Positions 4,072-60,181 of a stretch of 64,000 nt of DNA are shown here, in pieces. This stretch comes from a virus. The stretch lies in the IMG/VR virus record IMGVR_UViG_3300033402_000312. One strand, 5' to 3'. The notes under the pieces are model-generated. The model was not told the DNA's origin, did not search any database, and saw only the letters and a list, made by a program, of their open reading frames with translations. The number at the start of each line of letters is the position of its first letter. Positions within the stretch are counted from its first letter, which is position 1. Position numbers and translations under genes: made by a program.

Positions 4072-5649
4072 ATGACTTCACAGGAAGAAAGGCTTCTCAA
4101 CAAAGCCCGCGAGAAGCTTGAGGAGCAGCAGGAACTCCTCAAGCGCCTGACCGCCTCGGCGTACCATCTGGGCGTCGTTGTCGCCGTGTTCAAAGACCGC
4201 GTGGTCGTGGACACGGGGAACCAGCTTTTCGAACTCAACAAAGTCGAATCCTCGCTCGACGTCAAGGTCGGTCAGCCGGTTGACATACACCCCACGACGG
4301 GGCAGATCGTCAAGACCTCTGAATACGTCGCCTTCGGAGCTACCGGGAAAGTCACGGCAATCGACGGCGACCTCATCCAAATCAATACCCCCTACGGTCT
4401 TATCACCACGCGTGATTCAATGGTCGGTGGGGTGAATGTAGGCGACAAGGTCGTGCTGAACAGCACGAACCATGTCATCATGCACAAGCTGCCGGAGACG
4501 TCGCAGTACATCTTCAAAACCCAATCCGTTTTGAACTGGGACGACATTGGGGCGCAGGATGACGCAAAGAAAGAGCTTATCTCCGCGCTGGAAACCCCGT
4601 TCGAACATGAGGCCCTGTACAAGTTCTTCAACAAGCAGCGCATCAAGGGCTGCCTGCTTTGGGGACGCCCCGGCAACGGCAAGACGCTCCTCGGCCGCGC
4701 AGCGGCGGGATCGCTCGCCCGAATACACGGCAAGGATGCAACGGAGTCGGGTTTCATCTACATCAAGGGGCCGGAAATCCTCGACAAGTATGTCGGAGAG
4801 ACCGAGCAGCGGATCAGCGAAGCTTTCGACTTTGGCATAGCGCACTTCAAGAAGCACGGTTACCCGGCAGTGCTGTTCCTCGACGAAGCGGACGCCATCC
4901 TTGTCCGGCGCGGCATGCGTACGACATCCGGCATGGAGCAGACCATTGTGCCGATGTTCAATGCACGCATGGACGGCATCGAGGACAGTGGGGTGTTCGT
5001 GATCCTTGCGACCAACCGCGCCGACATCCTTGACCCGGCTATCGTCCGTCCGGGCCGCATCGACCGCAAGATTCACGTTGCGCCTCCTACCAAGGAAAAC
5101 GCGCCGAGCATCTTCGAGATACACATGCGTAATGTCCCTGTAGCCAAGGGCATGAGCAAGGAACAGCTAATCGCGGCGACTGTGGATTCCCTCTACAGTG
5201 ACAAGTTTCCCCTGTACTACATCGAAACCAAAAAGAATGAGCGCTTGGTATTTGGTCTCGGCAACCTTGCGTCCGGCGCTCTCATCGCTGGGGTTGTGGA
5301 ACGGGCGTCCGCCATCGCCATCGCCCGCGTGATCACCCAGCATGTTGCTGACGGTGCGGATTACAAGGCCGTTAAAAAGCTCGCCGATGACGTCGATGCT
5401 TTAGGGAAAGTTCTCGGGCTGACGCAATCGGATTTCGACAGTGCCCTAGTCGTCATGCACAAAGAGCAGTATGGCATAAACCATTTTGACGAGCTTAGCG
5501 AGTTTGTCGAGATGGGCAAGCTGGACGTGACGTCCATTGAGCAATGCCACACCGGGCAGCGCGTGGAAACAAAGCGCGAGGAGCGCCGTCAGGTGCAGGA
5601 GACAGCGATAGTGATCCCGGTCCCGACTTCCAAGTCGAAGTTGAATTGA
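4072..5649 (+). CDS. proteasomal-type AAA ATPase (PAN/Mpa/ARC-like: coiled coil + OB fold(s) + AAA)
   Basis: N-term coiled coil; OB segment ending VGDKVVLN...HKLPE (PAN/Rpt-like); Walker A GRPGNGKT, Walker B VLFLDEAD, second region of homology (SRH) ATNRADILDPAIVRPGRIDRKI. Confidence 0.75.
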   Translation: MTSQEERLLNKAREKLEEQQELLKRLTASAYHLGVVVAVFKDRVVVDTGNQLFELNKVESSLDVKVGQPVDIHPTTGQIVKTSEYVAFGATGKVTAIDGDLIQINTPYGLITTRDSMVGGVNVGDKVVLNSTNHVIMHKLPETSQYIFKTQSVLNWDDIGAQDDAKKELISALETPFEHEALYKFFNKQRIKGCLLWGRPGNGKTLLGRAAAGSLARIHGKDATESGFIYIKGPEILDKYVGETEQRISEAFDFGIAHFKKHGYPAVLFLDEADAILVRRGMRTTSGMEQTIVPMFNARMDGIEDSGVFVILATNRADILDPAIVRPGRIDRKIHVAPPTKENAPSIFEIHMRNVPVAKGMSKEQLIAATVDSLYSDKFPLYYIETKKNERLVFGLGNLASGALIAGVVERASAIAIARVITQHVADGADYKAVKKLADDVDALGKVLGLTQSDFDSALVVMHKEQYGINHFDELSEFVEMGKLDVTSIEQCHTGQRVETKREERRQVQETAIVIPVPTSKSKLN

Positions 5650-20013: not shown

Positions 20014-20107
20014 GGAGAGATGCCAGAGAGGCTGATCGGGGCGGTTTGCTAAACCGTTGTGGGAGCTAAAACTTCCACCGGGGGTTCGAATCCCCCTCTC
20101 TCCGCCA
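20014..20107 (+). tRNA. tRNA-Ser(GCU), type II, CCA encoded
   Basis: acceptor ggagaga/tctctcc, T-arm ggggg-ttcgaat-ccccc, anticodon loop ttGCTaa, long variable arm. Confidence 0.75.
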
Positions 20108-20108
20108 C

Positions 20109-20200
20109 GGAAGGGTTGGTACATTGGCAGGTCCGGCTGTCTCGAAAACAGTTACGGGGCGCAAGCTCCGTTGCCCGTTCGACTCGGGTCCCTTCCTCCA
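20109..20200 (+). tRNA. tRNA-Ser(CGA), type II, CCA encoded
   Basis: acceptor ggaaggg/cccttcc, T-arm gcccg-ttcgact-cgggt, loop ctCGAaa. Confidence 0.65.
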
Positions 20201-20345
20201 AGTTTAGATCGCAGCGGTGTTGGATACAGTTACTTCGGATAAACACAACCGGCGCGAGCCGGGCGTGCAAGTCTGGGTTCGAATCCCAGCGACCGGGCGC
20301 AAGCCCGGTGTCAACTGTGCCGCTTGTTCCCTGCGATTCAGTTTT

Positions 20346-20435
20346 GGAGAGTTGGCCGAGTGGACGATGGCGCTCGCTTGGAAAGCGAGTATCCTCGAAA
20401 GGGGGTCGCGAGTTCGAATCCCGCACTCTCCGCCA
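20346..20435 (+). tRNA. tRNA-Ser(GGA), type II, CCA encoded
   Basis: acceptor ggagagt/actctcc, loop ttGGAaa, disc G. Confidence 0.7.
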
Positions 20436-20436
20436 G

Positions 20437-20528
20437 GGCGAGGTTGGTACATGGGCAGGTCCGGCGCTCCCGAAAAGCGTTACGGGGCTGACGCTCCGTT
20501 GCAGGTTCAACTCCTGTCCTCGCCGCCA
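20437..20528 (+). tRNA. type II tRNA, Ser(CGA)-like with C33
   Basis: acceptor ggcgagg/cctcgcc, T-arm gcagg-ttcaact-cctgt, loop ccCGAaa (C at position 33). Confidence 0.5.
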
Positions 20529-20533
20529 AATTT

Positions 20534-20619
20534 GGAAGGTACTGCCGAATGGTTGGCAACTAGCCTTGAAAGCTAGGGCGTCCGAAAGGACGGGCGTTCG
20601 ATTCGTCTATCTTCCGCCA
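20534..20619 (+). tRNA. tRNA-Ser(UGA), type II, CCA encoded
   Basis: acceptor ggaaggt/atcttcc, D-stem tgcc/ggca, anticodon stem ctagc/gctag loop ctTGAaa. Confidence 0.7.
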
Positions 20620-20646
20620 AATTTCAGGTATTAGCCGTAGTAATTC

Positions 20647-20735
20647 GCGGGAGCAGCCCGATTGGCCGGAGGCGGCGGACTTAAAATCCGTTGGGAGCAA
20701 TCCCTTTGTGAGTTCGACTCTCACCTCCCGCACCA
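20647..20735 (+). tRNA. tRNA-Leu(UAA), type II, CCA encoded
   Basis: acceptor gcgggag/ctcccgc, disc A, loop ctTAAaa, T-arm gtgag-ttcgact-ctcac. Confidence 0.7.
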
Positions 20736-20740
20736 AATTC

Positions 20741-20829
20741 GCTGGTGTCCGTTGGCACGGGGAACCGTTTTATAAACGGTTGCCCTAGATCGGGGCTTCC
20801 ATAGGGTTCGATTCCCTACACCAGCACCA
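20741..20829 (+). tRNA. type II tRNA with anticodon UAU (unusual; Ile(UAU)-like or noncanonical)
   Basis: acceptor gctggtg/caccagc, disc A, anticodon stem accgt/acggt loop ttTATaa, 21-nt variable region, T-arm taggg-ttcgatt-cccta. Confidence 0.5.
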
Positions 20830-39594: not shown

Positions 39595-39623
39595 TTGACA
39601 GTTTTTCGAATTCTCAGTACTAT
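39595..39623 (+). promoter_or_regulatory. sigma70-like promoter TTGACA-N17-TACTAT
   Basis: ttgaca 39595-39600, tactat 39618-39623; same -10 as promoter at 19868. Confidence 0.55.
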
Positions 39624-39624
39624 T

Positions 39625-39809
39625 ACAGGCAGGCTAGGAACATGATTTCAAGGAAACCCAATACGATTGCCCGAAAGGGCGCGAGCCAGTGGCGGAATAA
39701 CCGCCATTTCGGCGTGGGTCTTTCCTCGGATGGGTGGGACGGCTAAAAAAACCCCAACCCAACCAAGCTGAACGGACCCGCCGACCGAAAGAGGTTGAGC
39801 GGGTTTTTT
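39625..39809 (+). ncRNA. candidate ~180-nt small RNA / leader ending at intrinsic terminator, upstream of tRNA-Trp
   Basis: promoter-to-terminator unit without convincing ORF. Confidence 0.3.
39777..39809 (+). terminator. putative rho-independent terminator
   Basis: cccgc...gcggg stem followed by tttttt. Confidence 0.45.
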
Positions 39810-39814
39810 GCTTT

Positions 39815-39890
39815 AGGGGATTGGTCTAGCGGCTACGATGCGCGTCTCCAAAACGCTGCGACGGGGGTTCGAGTCCCTCATCCCCTGCCA
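39815..39890 (+). tRNA. tRNA-Trp(CCA), CCA encoded
   Basis: acceptor aggggat/atcccct, loop ctCCAaa, T-arm gggggttcgagtccctc. Confidence 0.7.
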
Positions 39891-39912
39891 AGTTTTTGAA
39901 GGGAAGGAAGTT

Positions 39913-40543
39913 ATGGAACTGAGGTCAGGGGCTTCTCAAGCGCGAGGTACCCGCATCCTGCGGGGGGAGACGGCTGCCCGGAGGCGTCTTCATCTCGTCT
40001 AGCCTTGCGCAGAGGGCGACGGAAGCCGGGTACGAGGAGTTCGTCCTTCCGTCGCTTGAGCTTGCCGCCATGTACGCGGAGAAGGCGGGGGATGAGGTTC
40101 TGGGGCAGATGTACACGTTCCCGGACAAGAAGGGCAGGCTGCTGTGCCTGCGACCGGAGGGGACGGCGACGTGCCAGGTGCTCGCCGACACGGCGCTGAA
40201 GTCGGAGCGGGACGTGAGGCTCTGGTACCTGGCGACCTGCTGGCGCTACGAGCGGCCGCAAGCCGGGCGCTACCGGGAGTTCTTGCAGTTCGGCGTGGAG
40301 GTCCTGAACCCGCGCCGGGGCGTGCGGGACGAGCTTGTGGCGCTGGCCGAAGGCATGGTCGGAATGTTCACCGACCGCTATGAGGTGAGCAGGGCTGTGA
40401 AGCGCGGGCTGGCGTACTACGTCGAGGACGGCTTCGAGATAAGCTGCCCGCAGCTTGGCGCTCAGAAGCAGGTCTGCGGCGGCGGGTCGTACAAGCAGGG
40501 ATGCGGCTTCGCGCTCGGCGTGGATCGGCTGATGCTGGTTTGA
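39913..40543 (+). pseudogene. hisS-like (histidyl-tRNA synthetase class II core) remnant, frameshifted and internally shortened
   Basis: N-term fragment MELRS..RGTRILRGETAA stops at 40002; second frame carries motif 1 LRPEGTA, motif 2 CWRYERPQAGRYREFLQFGVE, motif 3 CGGGSYKQGCGFALGVDRL; insertion and anticodon-binding domains absent. Confidence 0.45.
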
Positions 40544-40570
40544 GTTTCATGCCGTAGTGCATGACACTAC

Positions 40571-40644
40571 GGTGGGCGTAGTTCAGTTGGGAGAACGCCC
40601 GGCTGTGAACCGGGAGGTCGCGGGTTCGAACCCCGCCGCTCACC
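40571..40644 (+). tRNA. tRNA-His(GUG) with genomically encoded G-1, no encoded CCA
   Basis: G-1 pairs with discriminator C73; acceptor gtgggcg/cgctcac; loop ctGTGaa; T-arm gcggg-ttcgaac-cccgc. Confidence 0.75.
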
Positions 40645-40689
40645 CTTTCGTGACTTCCTGAGTATTAAGTAGAGTGCTCAGGAAGGTTC

Positions 40690-41517
40690 ATGATGCTTTA
40701 CACCGTGTACAAGACGGTGAATTTGACGAACGGCAAGTACTACTTCGGCGTCCATAAAACGGACGACCCGGATGACGACTACCTCGGTTCTGGGGTATAC
40801 ATCAAGCGAGCCGTTGCAAAGTACGGGGAACAGAACTTCCGCAAGGAAGTGTTGTTCATTTATCTTGATGCGGAGTCGGCGTTTAAGAAAGAAGACGAGT
40901 TAATCCAGTGTTATCGAGGCAGGGACCCGTTGTGCATGAATCTAAAGAATGGAGGGAGAGGTGGCTATGACTGGATCAATAAAAACGGGTTAAATGGTGC
41001 GAAAGTTGCGCATCTCCCAAATGTAGAGCAACAGCGGCGACGGACATTCGGTAAAAGACTTAAGACCGACGAAAATTTTCGACGTCAAGTTGCCGAACGA
41101 GCAAAGCACGCGGCGCAATTTGTAAAAAATGAGAGCCGCTTGGAATCATTAAAGCAGGCGACAATCGCAGCAGCGAACGCAAATACGGGCAGAAAACGCT
41201 CCTCGGAATTCAAGCATAAGATTTCTGCCGCGCAGCGAGGGGGTAGGTGGGTACACCAAGGAAGAAATAAACGTCGAGTTGTCCAAGAAGATTTGCCAAG
41301 ATTTTTGAAAGAGGGCTGGCTGTTTGGACAAAAAGACAAGCCGTCGCTTAAGACCCGAAAATTAAGTAAAGCTCAAACAGCTTTCGCGGGGACACGTTGG
41401 TGCTGGGGGCATAAAGATTTTTTACCTCTTAACGCTTTTGATGGCGCAAATCGGTTGTGTAGGCTTTGCAGGAAAAAGCGGCGAGTTTTACGCCGCCAAG
41501 AGTTGGGACATTGGTAA
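40690..41517 (+). CDS. GIY-YIG homing endonuclease
   Basis: N-term YTVYKTVNLTNGKYYFGVHKT...YLGSG GIY-YIG motif; lower GC than flanks; sits between tRNA genes. Confidence 0.7.
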   Translation: MMLYTVYKTVNLTNGKYYFGVHKTDDPDDDYLGSGVYIKRAVAKYGEQNFRKEVLFIYLDAESAFKKEDELIQCYRGRDPLCMNLKNGGRGGYDWINKNGLNGAKVAHLPNVEQQRRRTFGKRLKTDENFRRQVAERAKHAAQFVKNESRLESLKQATIAAANANTGRKRSSEFKHKISAAQRGGRWVHQGRNKRRVVQEDLPRFLKEGWLFGQKDKPSLKTRKLSKAQTAFAGTRWCWGHKDFLPLNAFDGANRLCRLCRKKRRVLRRQELGHW

Positions 41518-41527
41518 TTTGATATAG

Positions 41528-41604
41528 GCGCGTGTAGCTCAGTTGGACAGAGCGCTACTCTGCGAAGGTAGAGGTCGCTGGTTCGAATCCAGTCACGCGC
41601 ACCA
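41528..41604 (+). tRNA. tRNA-Arg(GCG), CCA encoded
   Basis: acceptor gcgcgtg/cacgcgc, D-arm gctcagttggacagagc, loop ctGCGaa. Confidence 0.65.
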
Positions 41605-41611
41605 AGAGATT

Positions 41612-41689
41612 GCGCCTGTAGCTCAGTTGGACTAGAGCGTTCGCCTCCGAAGCGAAAGGCCGCGAGTTCGAGTCTCGCCAGGCGCACCA
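41612..41689 (+). tRNA. tRNA-Arg(CCG), CCA encoded
   Basis: acceptor gcgcctg/caggcgc, anticodon stem ttcgc/gcgaa loop ctCCGaa. Confidence 0.7.
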
Positions 41690-41859
41690 AGTTCGAGAGC
41701 AGTCCCGGCGCTGGCCGTGCGCAGCACGGATCAACGCCGCCGATGATTGGGGTCTGGTGCCCGAACCATCTGTGATACTCAACCGGACTAGGCGCGTTGC
41801 CGCTGGCCCAAAGTGGACGTCCACGGAAGGAGTCACGTGAGAGAGGGCTGCCTGAGTTT

Positions 41860-41937
41860 GCCGGGTTAGCTATTGGACATGGCAGCACGTCTTCGAAACG
41901 TGCAATTTAGCGGGTCCGAATCCCGCACCCGGTTCCA
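41860..41937 (+). tRNA. tRNA-Arg(UCG), CCA encoded (6-bp anticodon stem)
   Basis: acceptor gccgggt/acccggt, anticodon stem gcacgt/acgtgc loop ctTCGaa, T-arm gcgggtccgaatcccgc. Confidence 0.55.
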
Positions 41938-41943
41938 AGATTT

Positions 41944-42020
41944 GCCCCCGTAGCTCAGCGGAACAGAGCGGCACGCTACGAACGTGAAGGTCGGCGGTTC
42001 AAATCCGTCCGGGGGCACCA
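41944..42020 (+). tRNA. tRNA-Arg(ACG), CCA encoded
   Basis: acceptor gcccccg/cgggggc, loop ctACGaa. Confidence 0.7.
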
Positions 42021-42179
42021 AGGTTAGTACGAACATCAAGCCTGATTAAAGACGGTTGCTTTGAACGAGTAAAAAAGGAAGTAGTAAAGTGTGATGTGCG
42101 ATGTGCTAACTGTCACAGACGCCGCACTGCAAAGCAACAAAAACATTTTTGGCTAGAATTTTTAGCAACGAAAGTTTGA

Positions 42180-42255
42180 TGGGGTGTGGTCCAATCGGTA
42201 GGACGCTCGGCTGTTAACCGAGACGGTGTGGGTTCGAATCCCACTGCCCCAGCCA
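42180..42255 (+). tRNA. tRNA-Asn(GUU), CCA encoded
   Basis: acceptor tggggtg/tgcccca (U1), D-stem gtcc/ggac, anticodon stem ctcgg/ccgag loop ctGTTaa. Confidence 0.65.
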
Positions 42256-42362
42256 GCTTATGAAGTGGATTGCCCAAGCCCTGCTGAAGCGGATCGGCGC
42301 GTATCTGAATAACAAGCGCGGATTGACTTGGGCCGAGGCGAAGAGGTGGTATATCGTCATCA

Positions 42363-42381
42363 CCCCCCTTGCGGGGGTTTT
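42363..42381 (+). terminator. putative intrinsic terminator
   Basis: cccccc-ttgc-ggggg followed by tttt. Confidence 0.45.
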
Positions 42382-42422
42382 GAGGAAGGGAGCAAAGGCG
42401 TAAATTTGCAGAAGAGTTCTGA

Positions 42423-42497
42423 TCCTCGGTAGCTCAATGGCGGAGCAGGCGGCTGTTAACCGCAAGGTTGCAGGTTCAAGTCCTGCCCGAGGAGCCA
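42423..42497 (+). tRNA. tRNA-Asn(GUU), CCA encoded
   Basis: acceptor tcctcgg/ccgagga (E. coli-like U1), loop ctGTTaa. Confidence 0.7.
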
Positions 42498-42502
42498 AGT
42501 TT

Positions 42503-42577
42503 GGGTCTGTAATTCAGCGGCTAGAAGCCCTCGCTCTTAACGAGGTAACGAGAGTTCGAGTCTCTCCAGACCCACCA
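42503..42577 (+). tRNA. tRNA-Lys(CUU), CCA encoded
   Basis: acceptor gggtctg/cagaccc, anticodon stem cctcg/cgagg loop ctCTTaa. Confidence 0.7.
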
Positions 42578-42594
42578 AGTTTTTGTGATACCAT

Positions 42595-42671
42595 GGGCCG
42601 CTAGCTCAATTGGTTAGAGCAACTGCCTCTTAAGCAGAAGGTTCCCGGTTCGAGTCCGGGGCGGCTCACCA
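42595..42671 (+). tRNA. tRNA-Lys(CUU), CCA encoded
   Basis: acceptor gggccgc/gcggctc, D-arm gctcaattggttagagc, loop ctCTTaa. Confidence 0.7.
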
Positions 42672-42686
42672 AGATCGGAGAGGAAG

Positions 42687-42857
42687 ATGCTGAAGCCCAA
42701 CGGTGATTTTGATTTAGACGGAAAGCCGGTCATGCCCGATGTGGTTGTCGCCGGACTCATCCCCAACGAGGAGGGGCAAAACGATGTCGAGGTCGAACCT
42801 GCCGGGGTCGAACCCGACGATGACGACCTCTTCGTGGACTACGGCGGCGAGGGATGA
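42687..42857 (+). CDS. hypothetical small acidic protein (56 aa)
   Basis: GGAGAGGAAG RBS then ATG 42687; not in ORF track (below 60 aa). Confidence 0.35.
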   Translation: MLKPNGDFDLDGKPVMPDVVVAGLIPNEEGQNDVEVEPAGVEPDDDDLFVDYGGEG

Positions 42858-42901
42858 CAAGTTTTTGGGTATTAGGATTCTTAGGATAGGAGGTCGAAGA
42901 C

Positions 42902-43447
42902 GTGCCTGACGTACTGATTCTCGACATGAACTACCGCCCTGTCGGTTTCGCATCGTGGCAGGACGCGGTCAAGAACATCTGGAAGGACCGGGCTGTCGTC
43001 ATCAAGGAAGACGAGGACGGCAAGATGCTCCATTCCCCGTCCTTCGAGATGGGCATGCCGAGGGTGATCCGCGTCCGCAACGCGTGGGTGAAGCGGCGCA
43101 AGACCTCCGTCCCGTTCTCGCGGCGCAACCTTTACGTCCGCGACAGCGGCGAGTGCCAGTACTGCGGCAGGCACCTCAAGCTGGACGAGTACACGCTCGA
43201 CCACGTGGTGCCGCGCTCGCAGGGCGGTATCTCGTCCTGGGCGAACATGGTCCTGTCCTGCATGCGCTGCAACAAGCGCAAGGCGGGTCAGACGCCGGAG
43301 CAGGCAGGGATGCCTCTCTTGCAGAGGCCAATCGTCCCGAAGGTGGACGATCCGAAATATAATTTCAAATTGCACATTCGGAAGCTCCGCCCCGAGTGGA
43401 AGGAATGGGAGAACTTCCTGTACTGGAACATCGAGTTGGATAAATAG
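42902..43447 (+). CDS. HNH endonuclease
   Basis: CQYCGRHL...LDHVVPRSQGG...SCMRCNKRK. Confidence 0.75.
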   Translation: MPDVLILDMNYRPVGFASWQDAVKNIWKDRAVVIKEDEDGKMLHSPSFEMGMPRVIRVRNAWVKRRKTSVPFSRRNLYVRDSGECQYCGRHLKLDEYTLDHVVPRSQGGISSWANMVLSCMRCNKRKAGQTPEQAGMPLLQRPIVPKVDDPKYNFKLHIRKLRPEWKEWENFLYWNIELDK

Positions 43448-43494
43448 GTAGACAAGCCTCGGGGAGGACGATAACCTCCCCGAGCAAAGATTGC

Positions 43495-43572
43495 GGCCCC
43501 GTAGCTCAGCGGAACAAGAGTAGCGGTTTCCTAAACCGAAGGTCGTGCGTTCGAATCGCACCGGGGCTACCA
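43495..43572 (+). tRNA. tRNA-Arg(CCU), CCA encoded
   Basis: acceptor ggccccg/cggggct, loop ttCCTaa, T-arm gtgcg-ttcgaat-cgcac. Confidence 0.65.
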
Positions 43573-43577
43573 AAATT

Positions 43578-43775
43578 ATGATGTCAGCCGACATTTTCGT
43601 CTGGAAGTGCATCGTCTGCGGGCATAGGGTCATGACGCAGATGGACCTCCATGTCAACGACCGGCCGATCTGCGTGGAGTGCAATGCGGAGATGGAGCCA
43701 GTGAGGAAAGACCCCGAACTCGGGGAGCGCATCATGAGGATATGGGAGCGGCTGGTTCCCGGCGCACAGATTTGA
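43578..43775 (+). CDS. hypothetical zinc-ribbon protein
   Basis: CIVCGH...CVECN. Confidence 0.35.
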   Translation: MMSADIFVWKCIVCGHRVMTQMDLHVNDRPICVECNAEMEPVRKDPELGERIMRIWERLVPGAQI

Positions 43776-43779
43776 CTTT

Positions 43780-43854
43780 TGGGAGATCGTACAATCGGTA
43801 GTACACAGGTCTCTGGAACCTGTTATGGCGGTCCGAGTCCACCTCTCCCAGCCA
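43780..43854 (+). tRNA. tRNA-Gln(CUG), CCA encoded
   Basis: acceptor tgggaga/tctccca (U1-A72, disc G as in E. coli Gln), anticodon stem caggt/acctg loop ctCTGga. Confidence 0.65.
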
Positions 43855-43899
43855 AGCTTTCGGAACAGCCATGTGACTCTGGTGTTGAGCGGCGACAGC

Positions 43900-44079
43900 A
43901 TGAGCGGGTGCAAGAAGCACGGTCCCGGCGTTTGGCGCAGCGACTGCGAAGAGTGCCGCACGGCCCCGGTGCCGCAGCACGAAACCGATGTGATCCTGAC
44001 ACCGTCCTACTGCAACGGCTGCAAGTATGGCAGCCATTGCTTGGGCGCTGACCCGGACTGCGCATGCGGCTGCGAATAA
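43900..44079 (+). CDS. hypothetical Cys-rich protein
   Basis: MSGCKKHGPG...CEEC...CNGCKYGSHC...CACGC; start approximate. Confidence 0.3.
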   Translation: MSGCKKHGPGVWRSDCEECRTAPVPQHETDVILTPSYCNGCKYGSHCLGADPDCACGCE

Positions 44080-44109
44080 AGCTAGACAACGCCACGAAGT
44101 TGCGGTAGA

Positions 44110-44292
44110 ATGGGAGAGATGAACTCTCCGCTGAAGACGATCCTGAAGGTCACGGCTGCGGCGCTTGTACCGGGCATAGCGATCTACTTGCTGGCGAGCA
44201 TGATCCTGAGGGAGAACGAGAAGAAGGAATTCAAGAGGTATATCTACAACACCTACGGAGAGGGCAGCAAGTATGTTGACACCTACTATTGA
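44110..44292 (+). CDS. hypothetical small membrane protein
   Basis: single TM helix. Confidence 0.35.
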   Translation: MGEMNSPLKTILKVTAAALVPGIAIYLLASMILRENEKKEFKRYIYNTYGEGSKYVDTYY

Positions 44293-44389
44293 TTACAGCG
44301 CTCTTGCGACGATGGCGCTCGGCGTCTGCGCCCTCTGCCTCTGCCTTGCCTACCCTGCGCCACGAAGAAAACGCTGACCACATCCCTGC

Positions 44390-44465
44390 GGGCCGTTACG
44401 TCAACGGCTAGACTACTCGCCTTTTAAGCGATGGAATCTCGGTCCAAATCCGAGGCGGCCCACCA
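44390..44465 (+). tRNA. tRNA-Lys(UUU), CCA encoded
   Basis: acceptor gggccgt/gcggccc, loop ctTTTaa, T-arm ctcgg-tccaaat-ccgag. Confidence 0.65.
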
Positions 44466-44470
44466 AATTT

Positions 44471-44547
44471 GCCCCCGTCGTCCAACGGAATAAGGACACT
44501 GGCCTTCTAAGCCATGGATGCGGGTTCGATTCCTGCCGGGGGTACCA
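44471..44547 (+). tRNA. tRNA-Arg(UCU), CCA encoded
   Basis: acceptor gcccccg/cgggggt, D-stem gtcc/ggac, loop ctTCTaa. Confidence 0.65.
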
Positions 44548-44553
44548 ATTTTT

Positions 44554-44629
44554 GGGAGGTTAACTCAATCGGTAGAGTGCCCGGCCTTTAACCGGAACGT
44601 TGTGGGTTCGACTCCCATGCCTCCCACCA
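44554..44629 (+). tRNA. tRNA-Lys(UUU)-like with C33
   Basis: acceptor gggaggt/gcctccc, D-arm actcaatcggtagagt, anticodon loop ccTTTaa (C33), T-arm gtgggttcgactcccat. Confidence 0.5.
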
Positions 44630-56442: not shown

Positions 56443-56472
56443 CGGACATTTTCCCTTCCTTTGCTGTATACT
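56443..56472 (+). promoter_or_regulatory. conserved promoter motif CGGACA-N18-TATACT
   Basis: cggaca 56443-56448; tgTATACT ending 56472; ATG 56497 follows. Confidence 0.5.
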
Positions 56473-56496
56473 GGGGATGCGAAGAAGGGAAGGCTA

Positions 56497-58808
56497 ATGA
56501 AATTCGAATCCGAGAAGTCACCCACCGCGACATCCGGCATGCAGCCGAGCCGGGCTTTCCATTTCGAATTCAACGCAACGATGTTCAAGATGCTGTCCAG
56601 CACCACGTACTCGGACCCCATCCGCGCCATCATCCGCGAGCTTGCCTGCAACTCCTCCGACGCGCACGAGATGGCTGGAACCAACGGCAAGCCCTTCGAA
56701 ATTCACCTGCCCACAATCCATGAGCCTGAGTTCATCATCCGCGACTACGGCACGGGGATGAACGACGGGGAGATCAACGACCTCTTCACCATGTACGGCG
56801 GGTCGAACAAGCGCGGCGACAACCGCACCATCGGCGCTCTCGGCATCGGCTCCAAGTCCCCCTACGCGTACACCCAGATGTACAACGTGACGGCTACCAA
56901 GGACGGCGTCACGCGCACCTACGTCGCGCACGTCGAGAACGGGATGCCGCGCCTTACACCGGACAAGGTCTACGAGACGCCGGACGCGCCCAACAGCGTG
57001 ACCGTGCAGTTCCCGGTCAAGGAAGGCGACATTTGGGAGTTCGAGAACAAGGCGAAGATCGCGCTCGAATTCTTCGAACCCCTGCCGAGGGTCAACGTCC
57101 CCGGCTTCGTCCCGCACAAGCAAAGCTACATCCTCCGGGGCAAATTGTGGGGACTCCGCAGGGAAGCGCGGACGGCAGCGCACGGCTACACCTGCCGCGC
57201 CATCATGGGCAAGGTGCAATACCAAGTCGGCGGCATCGACGAGTCCCGCACCAATTCTTTGCAACGCAAGATTCTGGACATGCCCATCGACATGTTCTTC
57301 GCCCTCGGCGAACTGGAATTCGCGACGAGCCGCGAGACGCTCCAGCTTTCCGAAAAGACGGTCGCCGCCATCCTAGCGATGTGCGACAAGATCGTCGAGG
57401 AATCCATCCAGAGCGTTAAGGACAAGATCGACGCCTGCCAGCACGTATGGGAGGCGCAGGTTCTCCTGTTTTCGCTGATAAACCAAACGTCCAACTCCGT
57501 CAGCGGGAACGGCATGAGCGCCCTCATCCGCGAGGCGCTTGACAAAGGCAAGCTGTACGGCAAGTACAAGAACTTCGACTTGTCCGAGTCGAAGGCAGTC
57601 ATCAACATGCTGGCGTACAGCCACATCAGCGTGACCAAGTTCGAGCGCAACGCCAGCAGCCGGAGGCGTTCCACGAAGGTACCTTTTATTTCGACGGACG
57701 CCAAGACCCTGCGCGACGACAAGGCAGCAGCCAAGGCTACCGGAGACCCGCTGGTGATCGCCCGCAACCGCTACGAAATCACCGTCAAGCCGGACGTGCT
57801 ATTCGTGATCAACGATACGAAATACCCCGGCGACAAGTACGTTCACATGCACGTCCAGGAGTCGCCCGCCAACCATACTTTTCGCGAAGTCTACCTGATT
57901 CACAAGCCGAAAAGCGAGCCGGGCACCGACCTTGCCCTGACGGTCAACAACGCCAAGAAGCTGATCGCCCATATCGGCAACCCCCCGGTCAAGCTGATGT
58001 CCGAACTGGTCGCCGCCTATGCTCCCATCTTCGCGCAGCGCCGCTCGGCAGGCTCCTCGTCCAAGGCGCGGCAGATTGCCGTGCTGGTGGACGAGATCGG
58101 TCACCGCCGCCGCTACAACCAGAAAGGCTGGGGAAAGGCGTGGCGCTCCCCGAGCGAAGAAGAGATCGCCGCTCCCGGCAAGAAGTATTACGTCGCCATC
58201 GAAAAGCTGGTCGCGGTTAGCGCTAGGTTTGACGATGCTTGGGATTTGCGCGAGTTCGTGGACATGGTCGCCGCGTCCGGCAAGTTCGGCATCGACCGCA
58301 ACACGCCAATCTACGGCGTGAAGCACAACCACAAGGTGCTCAAGGAAAACAACGGCGAATGGGTCGAGCTTGTCCACCATGTGTACAGGCGCGTGGGCGA
58401 GATCATGACGCCGGAAAAGACCATGGCTGCCAGCCTGTACCTGACGCCGTTCAACGACGACCTGCTCGACCTGCTGAACCACCTTGCATCGAAGCAGCCG
58501 CTTGCCAACTCGCCGTTGCAGATGTTCGCGGTGGCGCTGTCCGAGGCGAAGAGCTACAAGATCGACAACTGTGGAGCAGCCTCAAGTGGGTGCTCGATTT
58601 TTGCGCCCGGCGCGGCAAGTACACCGAGGGCAAGACCGTGGACTTCAACGAGAAGTTCATGCAGGTCAAAGCGATGTACCCCATGCTCCAGTTCGTGGGA
58701 AGCTACAGCCTCCGCAGCAACCTCAAGACCTTGGTAGACTACATCCGGCAAGTGGACGAGCAAAATTTCAGGGAAGCCGTTTGCTTTGCGGCGGCATCCA
58801 ACCAATAG
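56497..58808 (+). CDS. GHKL/HATPase_c-domain ATPase (rIIA-like); 3' end requires a -1 frame change near 58565
   Basis: N-box IRELACNSSDAH, G-boxes IIRDYGTGMNDGE...GALGIGSKSPYAY; frame A runs to 58737 but becomes low-complexity after ...KSYKIDN, while frame -1 continues as LWSSLKWVLDF...AASNQ to 58808. Confidence 0.55.
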
Positions 58809-58819
58809 GAGAAAGAGCC

Positions 58820-60181
58820 ATGTCACTAAGCTACGCTTTGAAGGGAAACAACCTGTCGGTCGCTGTGACCGACAAAGAGACCGGGCTGCCCGTGTGGAGG
58901 ACGATGCACTCCTCGCACGTATCGTTCAAGAGCATTGTCCGCGCCCTCAAGAGGGGCGACGACGCCAAGGCGCTCCGGCTGTTCGACACGGCGCAGCTTA
59001 TCGCCGACAAGTCGCAGGGGCGCGTGCAGGTGCGGAAGGACGGCGTCTACTACAACGGCACCAAGATCGACAACTCCCTGACCGTCCGCATCCTCCGGCT
59101 TATCCGCGAGGGCAAGCCCGTGAGCCACATGCTCAAGTTCATGGACAGGCTCTACCAGAACCCCTCGCAGGCGGCCATCGACGAACTGTACGACTGGCTG
59201 AACGGCTGCAAGCTGCCGATCACCGACGACGGGCGCTTCGTCGCGTACCGCCGCGTCAAGAGCAACTACAAGGACTGCCACACGGGCACCATCGACAACA
59301 GCCCCGGTCAGATCGTCTTCATGAAGCGCTCCGACGTGTGCCCCGACCGCCGCAACACGTGCGCACAAGGCTTGCACTTCTGCTCCGTCGCGTACCTGCC
59401 GAGTTACCCCGGCGACCGCGTCATGCAAGTGGTCGTTGACCCCGCCGACGTCGTGAGCATCCCGAGCGACTGCGAGTACACCAAGGGCCGCACGTGGCAG
59501 TACGAAGTCGTGAAGGAAATCCCCCGCGAGCAGATCACCGACTTGCTCGACCGGGGCATGGACATCGACGATTACCGCGTCTCCGTCTACAGCATCGCCA
59601 GCGACCGCAAGAAGCTGGTCGCGGACATTCTTGCGCTGCCCATGGTCAAGTCCATGTTGCGCAAGGCGAAGAAAGTCCGCCGCATGAAGCGCGGTCGCAA
59701 GGCAAAGAGCGTCGCATTCCTCGTCTCCGAGCGCAGCATCCGCAAGATGACCTACGGGCGGCTCGTGAGCCTGTACAAGGTGTACGCGCCGCCTGAGCCG
59801 ACTACGCTCTCGCAAGGCATGTTCTTCGACCCGGTCACTGAGCAGAACCGCCTGTTCACAATGCGGAAGTCCTACGGCTTCTCTCGCGGTCAGGTCGCTG
59901 ACCAAATGAAGGTGAGCTACGGCACTGTCGCCAGATACGAGTCGGCGGTTTCGCTGCCGCAGGCAACCATCGACGAATACCTTGACGCCATCATGTGCCT
60001 GTCGCGCCTCGGCGCAACCGACCAGACCGGGCTGTCGCTCCCGAAGCCCACGCAGAAAACGAGTGCGGCTGCGGCTGACGGCGGCTCACTCAATGACGTA
60101 CCGGAAAGCGACGCGCCGGAAAGCTGGACGGTGGACAACGACGAAGAAGAGATCGACGAGTTCGGCTACGAGGATGCCTGA
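58820..60181 (+). CDS. hypothetical protein with C-terminal XRE-type HTH (possible rIIB-like partner)
   Basis: AGGAGAAAGAG RBS; conserved-looking core NPSQAAIDELYDWL...DNSPGQIVFM...CAQGLHFCS...DRVMQVVVDPADVVSIP; C-term GQVADQMKVSYGTVARYE. Confidence 0.45.
   Translation: MSLSYALKGNNLSVAVTDKETGLPVWRTMHSSHVSFKSIVRALKRGDDAKALRLFDTAQLIADKSQGRVQVRKDGVYYNGTKIDNSLTVRILRLIREGKPVSHMLKFMDRLYQNPSQAAIDELYDWLNGCKLPITDDGRFVAYRRVKSNYKDCHTGTIDNSPGQIVFMKRSDVCPDRRNTCAQGLHFCSVAYLPSYPGDRVMQVVVDPADVVSIPSDCEYTKGRTWQYEVVKEIPREQITDLLDRGMDIDDYRVSVYSIASDRKKLVADILALPMVKSMLRKAKKVRRMKRGRKAKSVAFLVSERSIRKMTYGRLVSLYKVYAPPEPTTLSQGMFFDPVTEQNRLFTMRKSYGFSRGQVADQMKVSYGTVARYESAVSLPQATIDEYLDAIMCLSRLGATDQTGLSLPKPTQKTSAAAADGGSLNDVPESDAPESWTVDNDEEEIDEFGYEDA

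Follow-up and report, generated by a model that had tools for sequence, protein, structure and literature searches.

Why does a phage carry, shortly before a gene for tRNA-His, a gene for a histidyl-tRNA synthetase (HisRS) that is interrupted by a frame break and is far too short for a canonical enzyme? This question is raised by the IMG/VR virus IMGVR_UViG_3300033402_000312, of which a stretch of 64 kb was analysed (the window; all coordinates are positions of the whole window, and the genes and signals described at 39595-41517 and 56461-60181 are on the plus strand). The window is phage DNA, with 22 tRNA genes, RIIA and RIIB, a DNA ligase and a homing endonuclease. A preliminary description regarded positions 39913-40644 as a decayed HisRS-like gene followed by tRNA-His, and considered a pseudogene, an assembly error or a minimal regulator resembling HisZ. 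Comparison with related sequences leads us to a different answer. Positions 39913-40543 probably constitute one functional gene for a 209-amino acid (aa) mini-HisRS, an autoregulated backup enzyme that would be made via a programmed +1 frameshift sensing His-tRNAHis.

The N-terminus of mini-HisRS is encoded in a short open reading frame (ORF0, 39913-40002), preceded by a ribosome-binding site that was read from the sequence (gaagggaaggaag, 39897-39909). ORF0 starts at ATG 39913 and comprises 29 codons, MELRSGASQARGTRILRGETAARRRLHLV, up to the stop codon TAG at 40000-40002. Codons 1-26 read MELRSGASQARGTRILRGETAARRRL, and are followed by His27 (CAT), two further codons and the TAG. Without a frameshift, ORF0 would give a 29-aa peptide. 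It was assigned to mini-HisRS by its homology to the N-termini of relatives that are encoded in a single frame and by its substitution pattern in the 0 frame. The body of the enzyme lies in the +1 frame (39992-40543, 183 codons plus the stop codon TGA at 40541-40543). It reads ...ISSSLAQRATEAGYEEF...LRPEGTA...CWRYERPQAGRYREFLQFGVE...CGGGSYKQGCGFALGVDRLMLV, with ...GFALGVDRLMLV as its C-terminal end up to 40543, and its first ATG is located at 40070.

At the junction, the window has the sequence cggagg cgt CTT CAT ctc gtc TAG (39979-40002). The hexamer CGGAGG (39979-39984; the Arg-Arg codons CGG AGG) is a putative internal stimulator resembling a Shine-Dalgarno (SD) element, 3 nt 5' of the shift codon. 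The candidate shift site CTT CAT C (39988-39994) would place Leu CUU in the ribosomal P site and His CAU in the 0-frame A site. CUU is able to re-pair on UUC, with C 39991 as the skipped base. Joining codon 26 (Leu, CTT) to ATC at 39992 yields the 209-aa product, with the predicted junction peptide ...RRRL-ISSSLAQR....

Both pieces of the gene resemble HisRS, with a homology far beyond chance. Matches were obtained to the Pfam family tRNA-synt_His (PF13393) with E = 1.5e-21 (77 bits, cutoff 25) and the NCBIfam model hisS (TIGR00442) with E = 7.7e-42, where the score of 143.7 bits is below the cutoff of 286.75 for full-length proteins. The score against the HisZ model (TIGR00443; 84.4 bits, cutoff 271.65) was lower than the hisS score, and profiles of PDB entries gave E-values of 1e-34 for HisRS versus 1e-10 for HisZ. 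The body carries class II motifs 1-3 and the HisRS-specific peptides LRPEGTA, RGLAYY and GGGSY. In an alignment of 26 sequences, LRPEGTA, CWRYERPQAGRYREFLQFGVE, RGLAYY, GGGSY and GFALGVDRL were all invariant and aligned to Escherichia coli HisRS. Family-wide, no variation was seen in the residues for binding of ATP and histidine (RPEGT, motif 2 R/E/R, Q..E, RGLxYY, GGGxY, and motif 3 GFAxGxDR).

The profile of the mini-HisRS family aligned solely to residues 14-150 and 243-315 of E. coli HisRS. Hence, the insertion domain and the C-terminal anticodon-binding domain are absent, which amounts to ~90 and ~110 residues, respectively, of the canonical enzyme. The preliminary description was right about the HisRS motifs, the missing domains, and the N-terminus in another frame with its stop at 40002. 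AlphaFold2, with the family alignment as input, modelled the fused 209-aa product with a predicted local distance difference test score (pLDDT) of 91.7 and a predicted template modelling (TM) score of 0.89. In this model, helix 19-37 runs unbroken across the frameshift junction. The top 18 PDB matches of the model in Foldseek were all HisRS, including the E. coli (TM 0.85) and Thermus thermophilus enzymes, with a query TM of up to 0.86; HisZ and PylRS scored lower.

A protein search with ORF0 and the body joined gave 2,246 matches, of which the best 120 were all 144-260 aa long. We drew loci from 80 of the >540 metagenome matches and 80 of the >570 genome matches. The family consists of ~200-aa HisRS catalytic cores, with a mean column identity of 65%. 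Members encoded in a single frame (in-frame members) have 208-226 aa and start with ME(L/I)KI..Q.RG(T/V)RI..G..A..RR.(L/I)(L/I)N...LAE..GFEE. This N-terminal consensus equals the ORF0 of the window joined to its +1 frame, and a +1 shift at codon 26 puts the window product in exact length register with the in-frame homologues. Family members were found in the huge uncultured phages LR745206 (635 kb) and LR756502 (642 kb), in IMG/VR contigs of 350-675 kb, and in bacterial genomes, e.g. of Hahella, Massilia and Kangiellaceae. In the database, the proteins closest to that of the window share 74-88% identity with it, and start either with a +1-frame reading of the canonical N-terminus (..REAPASCGGRRLPGGVFISS..) or at internal codons. 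Judging from these sequences, absence of the two domains is normal in this large conserved family, and the short architecture is no sign of decay.

The frame break is not a peculiarity of the window either. We translated 235 related loci in three frames and compared them with a hidden Markov model of the in-frame members. Frame-broken genes were represented by 63 distinct sequences and in-frame genes by 60. In the 63 shifted sequences, which are 45-88% identical to the window protein, the N-terminal 24-30 residues sit one base behind the frame of the body. The shifted loci include a 463-kb IMG/VR phage (L004) with the same order of tRNA-Trp, mini-HisRS and tRNA-His as the window, further contigs of 447 and 465 kb, and the isolated Sinorhizobium phage Phosso (predicted junction peptide ...TLRGCL-IEADYEEVILPSIWEQ...), whose annotated coding sequence opens at a spurious +1-frame ATG. 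Shifted genes also occur in isolates of Pseudomonas grimontii, P. cerasi, P. amygdali, P. fragi and P. syringae, several Paraburkholderia, Burkholderia orbicola and Chromobacterium vaccinii, and in the finished megaplasmid of Paraburkholderia sprentiae WSM5005. For the latter, RefSeq annotates a protein of 203 aa, named 'ATP phosphoribosyltransferase regulatory subunit', that starts at a +1-frame TTG. One locus (L121) had no recognisable N-terminal ORF and may be a genuine pseudogene.

Deposited shifted members (Phosso XYS97181.1, L001 3585-4175; RefSeq WP_051374196.1, L238 2447-3058) begin at a +1-frame ATG or TTG that is there by chance. Therefore, the first 9-20 residues of these deposited proteins are spurious, and the conserved (M)LRGTR... 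N-terminus is missing from them. The same kind of truncation accounts for many database entries of 144-193 aa.

The break coincides with a conserved cassette in 47 distinct shifted sequences, which were parsed automatically. Positions -9 to -4 before the P-site codon are C (43), G (47), G (44), A (41), G (45) and G or C (24 and 21), followed by a variable spacer (-3 to -1) between this SD-like element and the P-site codon. The P-site codon is CTT (39) or GTT (8; n = 47), with CTC in locus L148 as the one exception. It is always followed by a His codon (47/47), CAT in 39 and CAC in 8 sequences, and the body resumes as (C)-A(T/C)N. The 0-frame stop codon lies 0-13 codons past His. It comes directly after His in 16/47 sequences, and UGA occupies this position in 12/47, e.g. 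in the sequence CTT CAT TGA C of Paraburkholderia. ORF0 has a length of 24-40 codons in the 47 sequences, and in all 46 relatives in which its start was parsed this is an ATG or GTG with an SD-like purine run 5' of it. In the +1 frame upstream of the site, ATG, GTG and TTG are all absent in 24/47 loci, the window included. The same shift site was seen in 16 loci of bacterial genomes and in one RefSeq megaplasmid. Within the window, GGAGN4STTCAY occurs once, against 0.52 occurrences expected by chance. The motif is thus not significant in a single sequence, and the argument rests on conservation across sequences.

Third codon positions within the cassette are conserved as well. The wobble position -7, in the first Arg codon, is G in 44/47 sequences, and the wobble position +2, in the Leu or Val codon, is T in 46/47. 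At other third positions upstream of the cassette all four bases occur. In these genes CTT makes up 15% of the Leu codons, GTT 17% of the Val codons, and CGG and AGG 20% and 7% of the Arg codons. The residues encoded over the SD-like tract differ by clade (RRR, RSY, RGC, RGF, REY), and GGAG is kept. These patterns show that selection acts on the cassette as a nucleotide sequence. Past the shift, the first +1-frame codon begins with A in all 47 sequences and encodes Ile or Thr. In-frame homologues have Leu, Ile or Val at this codon, with varied first bases. The invariant A therefore fits selection for CAY in the 0 frame. The sequence GGAGG-NNN-CTT was found at the equivalent position in 0/56 distinct in-frame loci, a comparison that is confounded by base composition because these are mostly AT-rich phages.

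Substitutions follow the reading frame on both sides of the site. In the set of Phosso-like and bacterial sequences, pairwise differences at codon positions 1, 2 and 3 numbered 2490, 1699 and 4270 upstream (0 frame), and 1097, 738 and 3348 downstream (+1 frame). The corresponding numbers for the clade of the window were 82, 48 and 225 upstream, and 160, 182 and 329 downstream. This pattern indicates purifying selection in the 0 frame before the break and in the +1 frame after it, with the switch exactly at the site. The window sequence, including the break, was assembled identically from two different JGI samples. We conclude from these comparisons that the frame break is almost certainly real and under selection, and that it is old.

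A neighbour-joining tree of the shared body grouped the shifted sequences in clades of 33 (bacterial type), 15 (window clade, huge phages) and 6 (Phosso type), and several small ones. These clades, about ten in all, are interleaved with in-frame clades. On this crude tree, parsimony requires ~9 state changes and leaves the ancestral state ambiguous. The distribution suggests that the cassette may have been lost repeatedly or, less likely, gained repeatedly, as reported for prfB, the gene for release factor RF2.

The composition of the product offers a clue to what the cassette may sense. The 209-aa product of the window contains no histidine at all, and the A-site CAT is the sole His codon of the mRNA in either reading. 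Shifted products together have 3 His among 9,701 residues (0.03%). For the in-frame family this was 33 of 11,644 residues (0.28%) in the fetched loci and 45 of 14,395 (0.31%) in database proteins, and in the equivalent core of 76 full-length HisRS genes from the fetched loci it was 150 of 16,316 (0.92%). Avoidance of His is thus a family-wide trait, with in-frame members about three-fold below the full-length HisRS core, and it is most extreme in the shifted members. Since the product contains no His, it can be made without His-tRNAHis, which is what one expects of a protein that is needed when His-tRNAHis is scarce.

Shifted genes also lie close to tRNA-His more often than in-frame ones. A tRNA-His gene was located within 500 nt in 11/55 distinct shifted loci versus 2/59 in-frame loci, and in the window clade it follows the stop codon by 5-29 nt. 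In the window, tRNA-His(GTG) extends from 40571 to 40644 (called by ARAGORN and Rfam at 40572-40644/5). The base before G1, G 40571, was read from the sequence and can pair with the discriminator base C 40644, which gives the pair G-1:C73. Exactly 27 nt (40544-40570) separate the stop codon of mini-HisRS from this genome-encoded G-1, in agreement with the preliminary description, and the tRNA is probably co-transcribed with the mini-HisRS gene.

These findings can be combined in the following mechanism. Ribosomes would initiate at ATG 39913 and proceed until CUU (39988-39990) occupies the P site and CAU (39991-39993), the sole His codon of the mRNA, the A site. CGGAGG, 3 nt 5' of the shift codon, would pair with the 16S rRNA tail, as in prfB. 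With plentiful His-tRNAHis, CAU would be decoded fast, and termination three codons further at TAG would release the 29-aa peptide. With scarce His-tRNAHis, the ribosome would pause, peptidyl-tRNALeu would slip from CUU to UUC, and decoding in the +1 frame (AUC...) would produce the full enzyme. This His-free enzyme would then restore charging of tRNAHis, including the G-1:C73 tRNA-His that the phage itself encodes 27 nt downstream. Such a homeostatic loop would be built like the autoregulation of RF2, with a 'hungry' cognate sense codon instead of a stop codon. Expression by a +1 ribosomal frameshift at codon 26 is very likely. It is fairly likely that the His codon acts as the sensor of His-tRNAHis.

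Charging of tRNAHis by the product itself is somewhat more likely than not. In the complex of T. thermophilus HisRS with tRNAHis, the acceptor end and G-1 are held mostly by the catalytic domain, which reads the main identity element, the pair G-1:C73 (PMC4357726). Contacts of the insertion domain are largely dispensable, as mutant R197A retained >50% activity and K209A was close to wild type (PMC4357726). Moreover, engineered HisRS cores of 119-145 residues activate histidine (PMC3060492). By analogy with these enzymes, it is plausible that a stand-alone HisRS core reads G-1:C73.

Several observations weigh against this mechanism. Two loci depart from the cassette: in L148 (ena ERZ27241273 k141_82525, ~890-915) the site reads CTC CAT and the 0-frame ORF continues for 13 codons, and L084 is without the SD-like GGAG tract. 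The P-site codon is GUU in 8/47 sequences (17%), where tRNAVal re-pairs poorly on UUC. Conservation of CAY is partly confounded, because its third base doubles as the second base of the +1-frame Ile or Thr codon and because the shifted sequences are phylogenetically related. His codons are not intrinsically slow, so that the efficiency of shifting may be low under normal conditions. Additional enzyme would be useless if free histidine itself were limiting. Mini-HisRS is without the insertion domain that clamps the acceptor stem, and the Gly-Gly pocket for G-1 of T. thermophilus is replaced by Lys-Gly or variants (our alignment against PMC4357726); tRNA charging is thus not assured. Finally, in the flanks of the loci examined, bacterial chromosomal copies had no nearby tRNA-His or other tRNA gene, and no conserved neighbours besides the gene itself.

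Taken by itself, the window could be read as a pseudogene, i.e. a former hisS that lost domains, acquired a frameshift and has no functional product. Its ORF is broken, the body frame offers no start before ATG 40070, and the hisS score falls under the NCBIfam cutoff. However, the short architecture is common to thousands of database proteins with invariant catalytic residues, and the identical break in 63 distinct sequences from phages and bacteria is not private to one lineage. Moreover, differences are in excess at third positions of the proper frame on each side of the break, synonymous sites of the cassette are frozen, and real decay would look like locus L121, where the N-terminus is no longer recognisable. 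The decay proposed in the preliminary description is therefore very improbable. Single-base indels are common in metagenome assemblies, and the break might accordingly be a sequencing or assembly error within one continuous ORF, as the preliminary description also considered. Against this, the same sequence was obtained from different JGI samples, the break is not in a homopolymer, and the extra base recurs at this codon in dozens of metagenomes as well as in finished bacterial replicons and an isolated phage. An error has next to no probability. The locus might also produce two polypeptides, perhaps as a split enzyme, with the body started separately from the ORF0 peptide, either with the internal GGAGG as a ribosome-binding site (e.g. 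at AUC) or by termination-reinitiation. The SD-like element is located 7 nt before the +1-frame AUC, a good spacing for initiation, and the nearby 0-frame stop could allow coupling. Yet 8/47 sequences have ACN as the +1 codon, at which initiation never occurs, and the others have AUC or AUU; none of these is canonical. Upstream +1-frame ATG, GTG and TTG are lacking in 24/47 loci and vary in position elsewhere. Furthermore, initiation has no need of the frozen wobble T of NTT, one continuous helix spans the junction in the model, and in-frame homologues are single chains. We therefore consider separate initiation quite improbable.

More weight, though still well short of likely, goes to the possibility that the frameshift is programmed and the product does not charge tRNA. 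The product would then be an activator of ATP phosphoribosyltransferase like HisZ, or a factor dependent on histidine or His-AMP, and the His codon would sense histidine starvation so that histidine supply or signalling is raised. The anticodon-binding domain is absent, as in HisZ, and the insertion domain and the canonical Gly-Gly pocket for G-1 are missing too. In addition, RefSeq names relatives 'ATP phosphoribosyltransferase regulatory subunit', and the bacterial copies are not linked to tRNA genes. In contrast, sequence and fold resemble HisRS far more than HisZ, with 143.7 versus 84 bits in NCBIfam and 1e-34 versus 1e-10 for the PDB profiles. The arginines of motifs 2 and 3 and the HisA and HisB residues are invariant; HisZ proteins, reportedly after Sissler et al. 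in 1999, have no aminoacylation activity. The gene hisG, the partner one would look for, was absent from the flanks of every phage and bacterial locus examined. Phage copies often lie 5-30 nt from tRNA-His, and engineered HisRS cores of 119-145 residues activate histidine (PMC3060492). The minimal HisZ-like regulator of the preliminary description is thus disfavoured.

Further candidate explanations were rejected. Reading TAG as a sense codon at 40000 gives ...HLV?PCAEGDGSRV... followed by TGA, and does not restore the HisRS frame. Transcriptional slippage was dismissed for want of a repeat run at the site (cggaggcgtcttcatctc), and independent initiation of the body for want of a conserved start codon. 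A known RNA element or T-box was also discarded, as the only Rfam matches were the two tRNAs.

The frameshift proposed for mini-HisRS can be compared with that of prfB, where CTT_TGA_C is combined with an upstream SD-type stimulator in an autoregulatory circuit (PMC3711429, PMC5009743). Both genes have a short 0-frame ORF of ~26 codons: UGA is codon 26 in E. coli prfB, and the shift codon of mini-HisRS is Leu26 (PMC5009743, PMC3711429). Both have an SD-like purine tract 3 nt 5' of a CUU P-site codon, where CGGAGG matches the position of AGGGGG in prfB. In both, the decoding rate at the A site is tied to the product of the gene itself, for mini-HisRS as a proposal, and the remaining protein, its main body, is encoded in the +1 frame; in mini-HisRS both ORFs are under purifying selection. 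Both cassettes are conserved over distant lineages, with some lineages in frame. Unlike in prfB, the A site of mini-HisRS holds the sense codon His CAY (47/47) instead of UGA plus C, the 0-frame stop follows 0-13 codons later, and GUU replaces CUU in 17% of the sequences. Moreover, mini-HisRS would sense an aminoacyl-tRNA rather than a release factor, and the gene is an aminoacyl-tRNA synthetase (aaRS) paralogue that occurs in phages and bacteria. It is thus a variant of the prfB type and not a strict member.

Frameshifting on slow sense codons has been described for Ty1, with its site CUU_AGG_C, and 'hungry' codons promote +1 shifts (PMC5009743). As in Ty1, ABP140, EST3 and hungry-codon shifting, peptidyl-tRNALeu of mini-HisRS would slip on CUU before a slow sense codon in the A site, with an efficiency set by the supply of A-site aminoacyl-tRNA (PMC5009743). 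In contrast to mini-HisRS, Ty1, ABP140 and EST3 are eukaryotic cases that shift without an SD stimulator, rely on a tRNA that is constitutively rare, and lack feedback on the enzyme that charges this tRNA.

Mini-HisRS shares motifs 1-3, the HisA and HisB peptides and the fold with canonical HisRS (class IIa; PF13393, TIGR00442). It differs from canonical HisRS and from urzymes in that it is nearly free of His and is a natural protein of ~205 aa rather than an engineered fragment. HisZ is likewise a HisRS paralogue without the anticodon-binding domain, and annotation pipelines give its name to relatives of mini-HisRS. Unlike mini-HisRS, HisZ retains the insertion region, has a length of ~300-400 aa and functions together with HisG. 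Attenuation in the his operon leader and T-boxes also set expression by the availability of charged tRNAHis, which is read on the mRNA. They act on transcription termination, by stalling at a run of His codons or by direct binding of the tRNA. The control of mini-HisRS, in contrast, would lie in whether ribosomes switch frame at a single His codon.

The surroundings of the gene contain other features that deserve mention. The 22 tRNA genes of the window form two arrays (20014-20829 and 39815-44629) and are highly redundant, with five Ser, six Arg isoacceptors, four Lys and two Asn. The second array starts with tRNA-Trp(CCA) at 39815-39890 (ARAGORN, Rfam), 22 nt 5' of the ATG of mini-HisRS. Before tRNA-Trp, a strongly folding region of ~190 nt extends up to 39814 (-74.6 kcal/mol, z = -3.06), with a GC-rich hairpin and a U-run right before the tRNA gene. 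This region had no Rfam match; it may represent a leader or a small RNA, or simply serve as terminator for the unit upstream. It is preceded by a sigma-70-like promoter at 39595-39623 (TTGACA-17-TACTAT). Locus L004 likewise has a terminator-like hairpin before its tRNA-Trp.

Downstream, an ORF of 275 aa (40690-41517) lies within the tRNA array, 45 nt 3' of tRNA-His. It matched PHROG 314 'homing endonuclease' with E = 2e-40 and has a GIY-YIG-like N-terminus (YTVYKTVNLTNGKYYFGVHKT); no Pfam match was obtained at a threshold of 0.01. The same ORF also lies 3' of the mini-HisRS gene in the independent contigs L236 and L237. ARAGORN called two unusual tRNAs: an 89-nt 'tRNA-Ile(TAT)' with its anticodon at position 31 (20741-20829), and, in the tRNA array of L004 (IMGVR_UViG_3300033405_000001, 5497-5564), a 68-nt 'tRNA-???' with a two-base anticodon (ac), which may be a mis-call or an odd-looped tRNA. 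The RIIA-like (56461-58737) and RIIB-like (58484-60181) ORFs overlap by ~250 nt in the mechanical ORF list, and the true start of RIIB is probably located further downstream.

SD-stimulated +1 slippage on CUU belongs to a known class of mechanisms. What is new is the cognate sense codon as proposed sensor, a target in the aaRS family, a product free of His, and the occurrence in phages and bacteria alike. The literature searched, including the 2016 recoding review and the GeneTack survey, made no mention of a frameshift in a HisRS-like or any other aaRS-family gene; most subscription journals were outside the scope of this search, and a prior description is possible. Shifted genes are mis-annotated by gene callers, which truncate the proteins, give them spurious N-termini or name them 'ATP phosphoribosyltransferase regulatory subunit' (Phosso XYS97181.1, RefSeq WP_051374196.1). 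Culturable carriers exist in Sinorhizobium phage Phosso, Pseudomonas and Paraburkholderia.

We give an even chance to the full picture of a natural hungry-codon circuit. In this picture, a His-free minimal HisRS without anticodon-binding domain, the smallest natural one of its type, would be switched on when ribosomes pause at one His codon in a prfB-like +1 cassette. It would be the first known case of an aaRS-family gene that regulates its own expression through programmed frameshifting on the cognate codon, in a circuit common to huge phages and the chromosomes of Pseudomonas and Burkholderiales and hidden by annotation. If this is true, it would be the third natural sensor-effector frameshift beside RF2 and antizyme, and the first that senses a specific aminoacyl-tRNA. 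Competition between A-site decoding and +1 slippage, known from Ty1 and used as an experimental tool, would then have been used by evolution as a regulator. A natural HisRS core of ~205 aa also bears on minimal recognition of tRNAHis via G-1:C73, on urzyme models of early synthetases, and on translation in huge phages.

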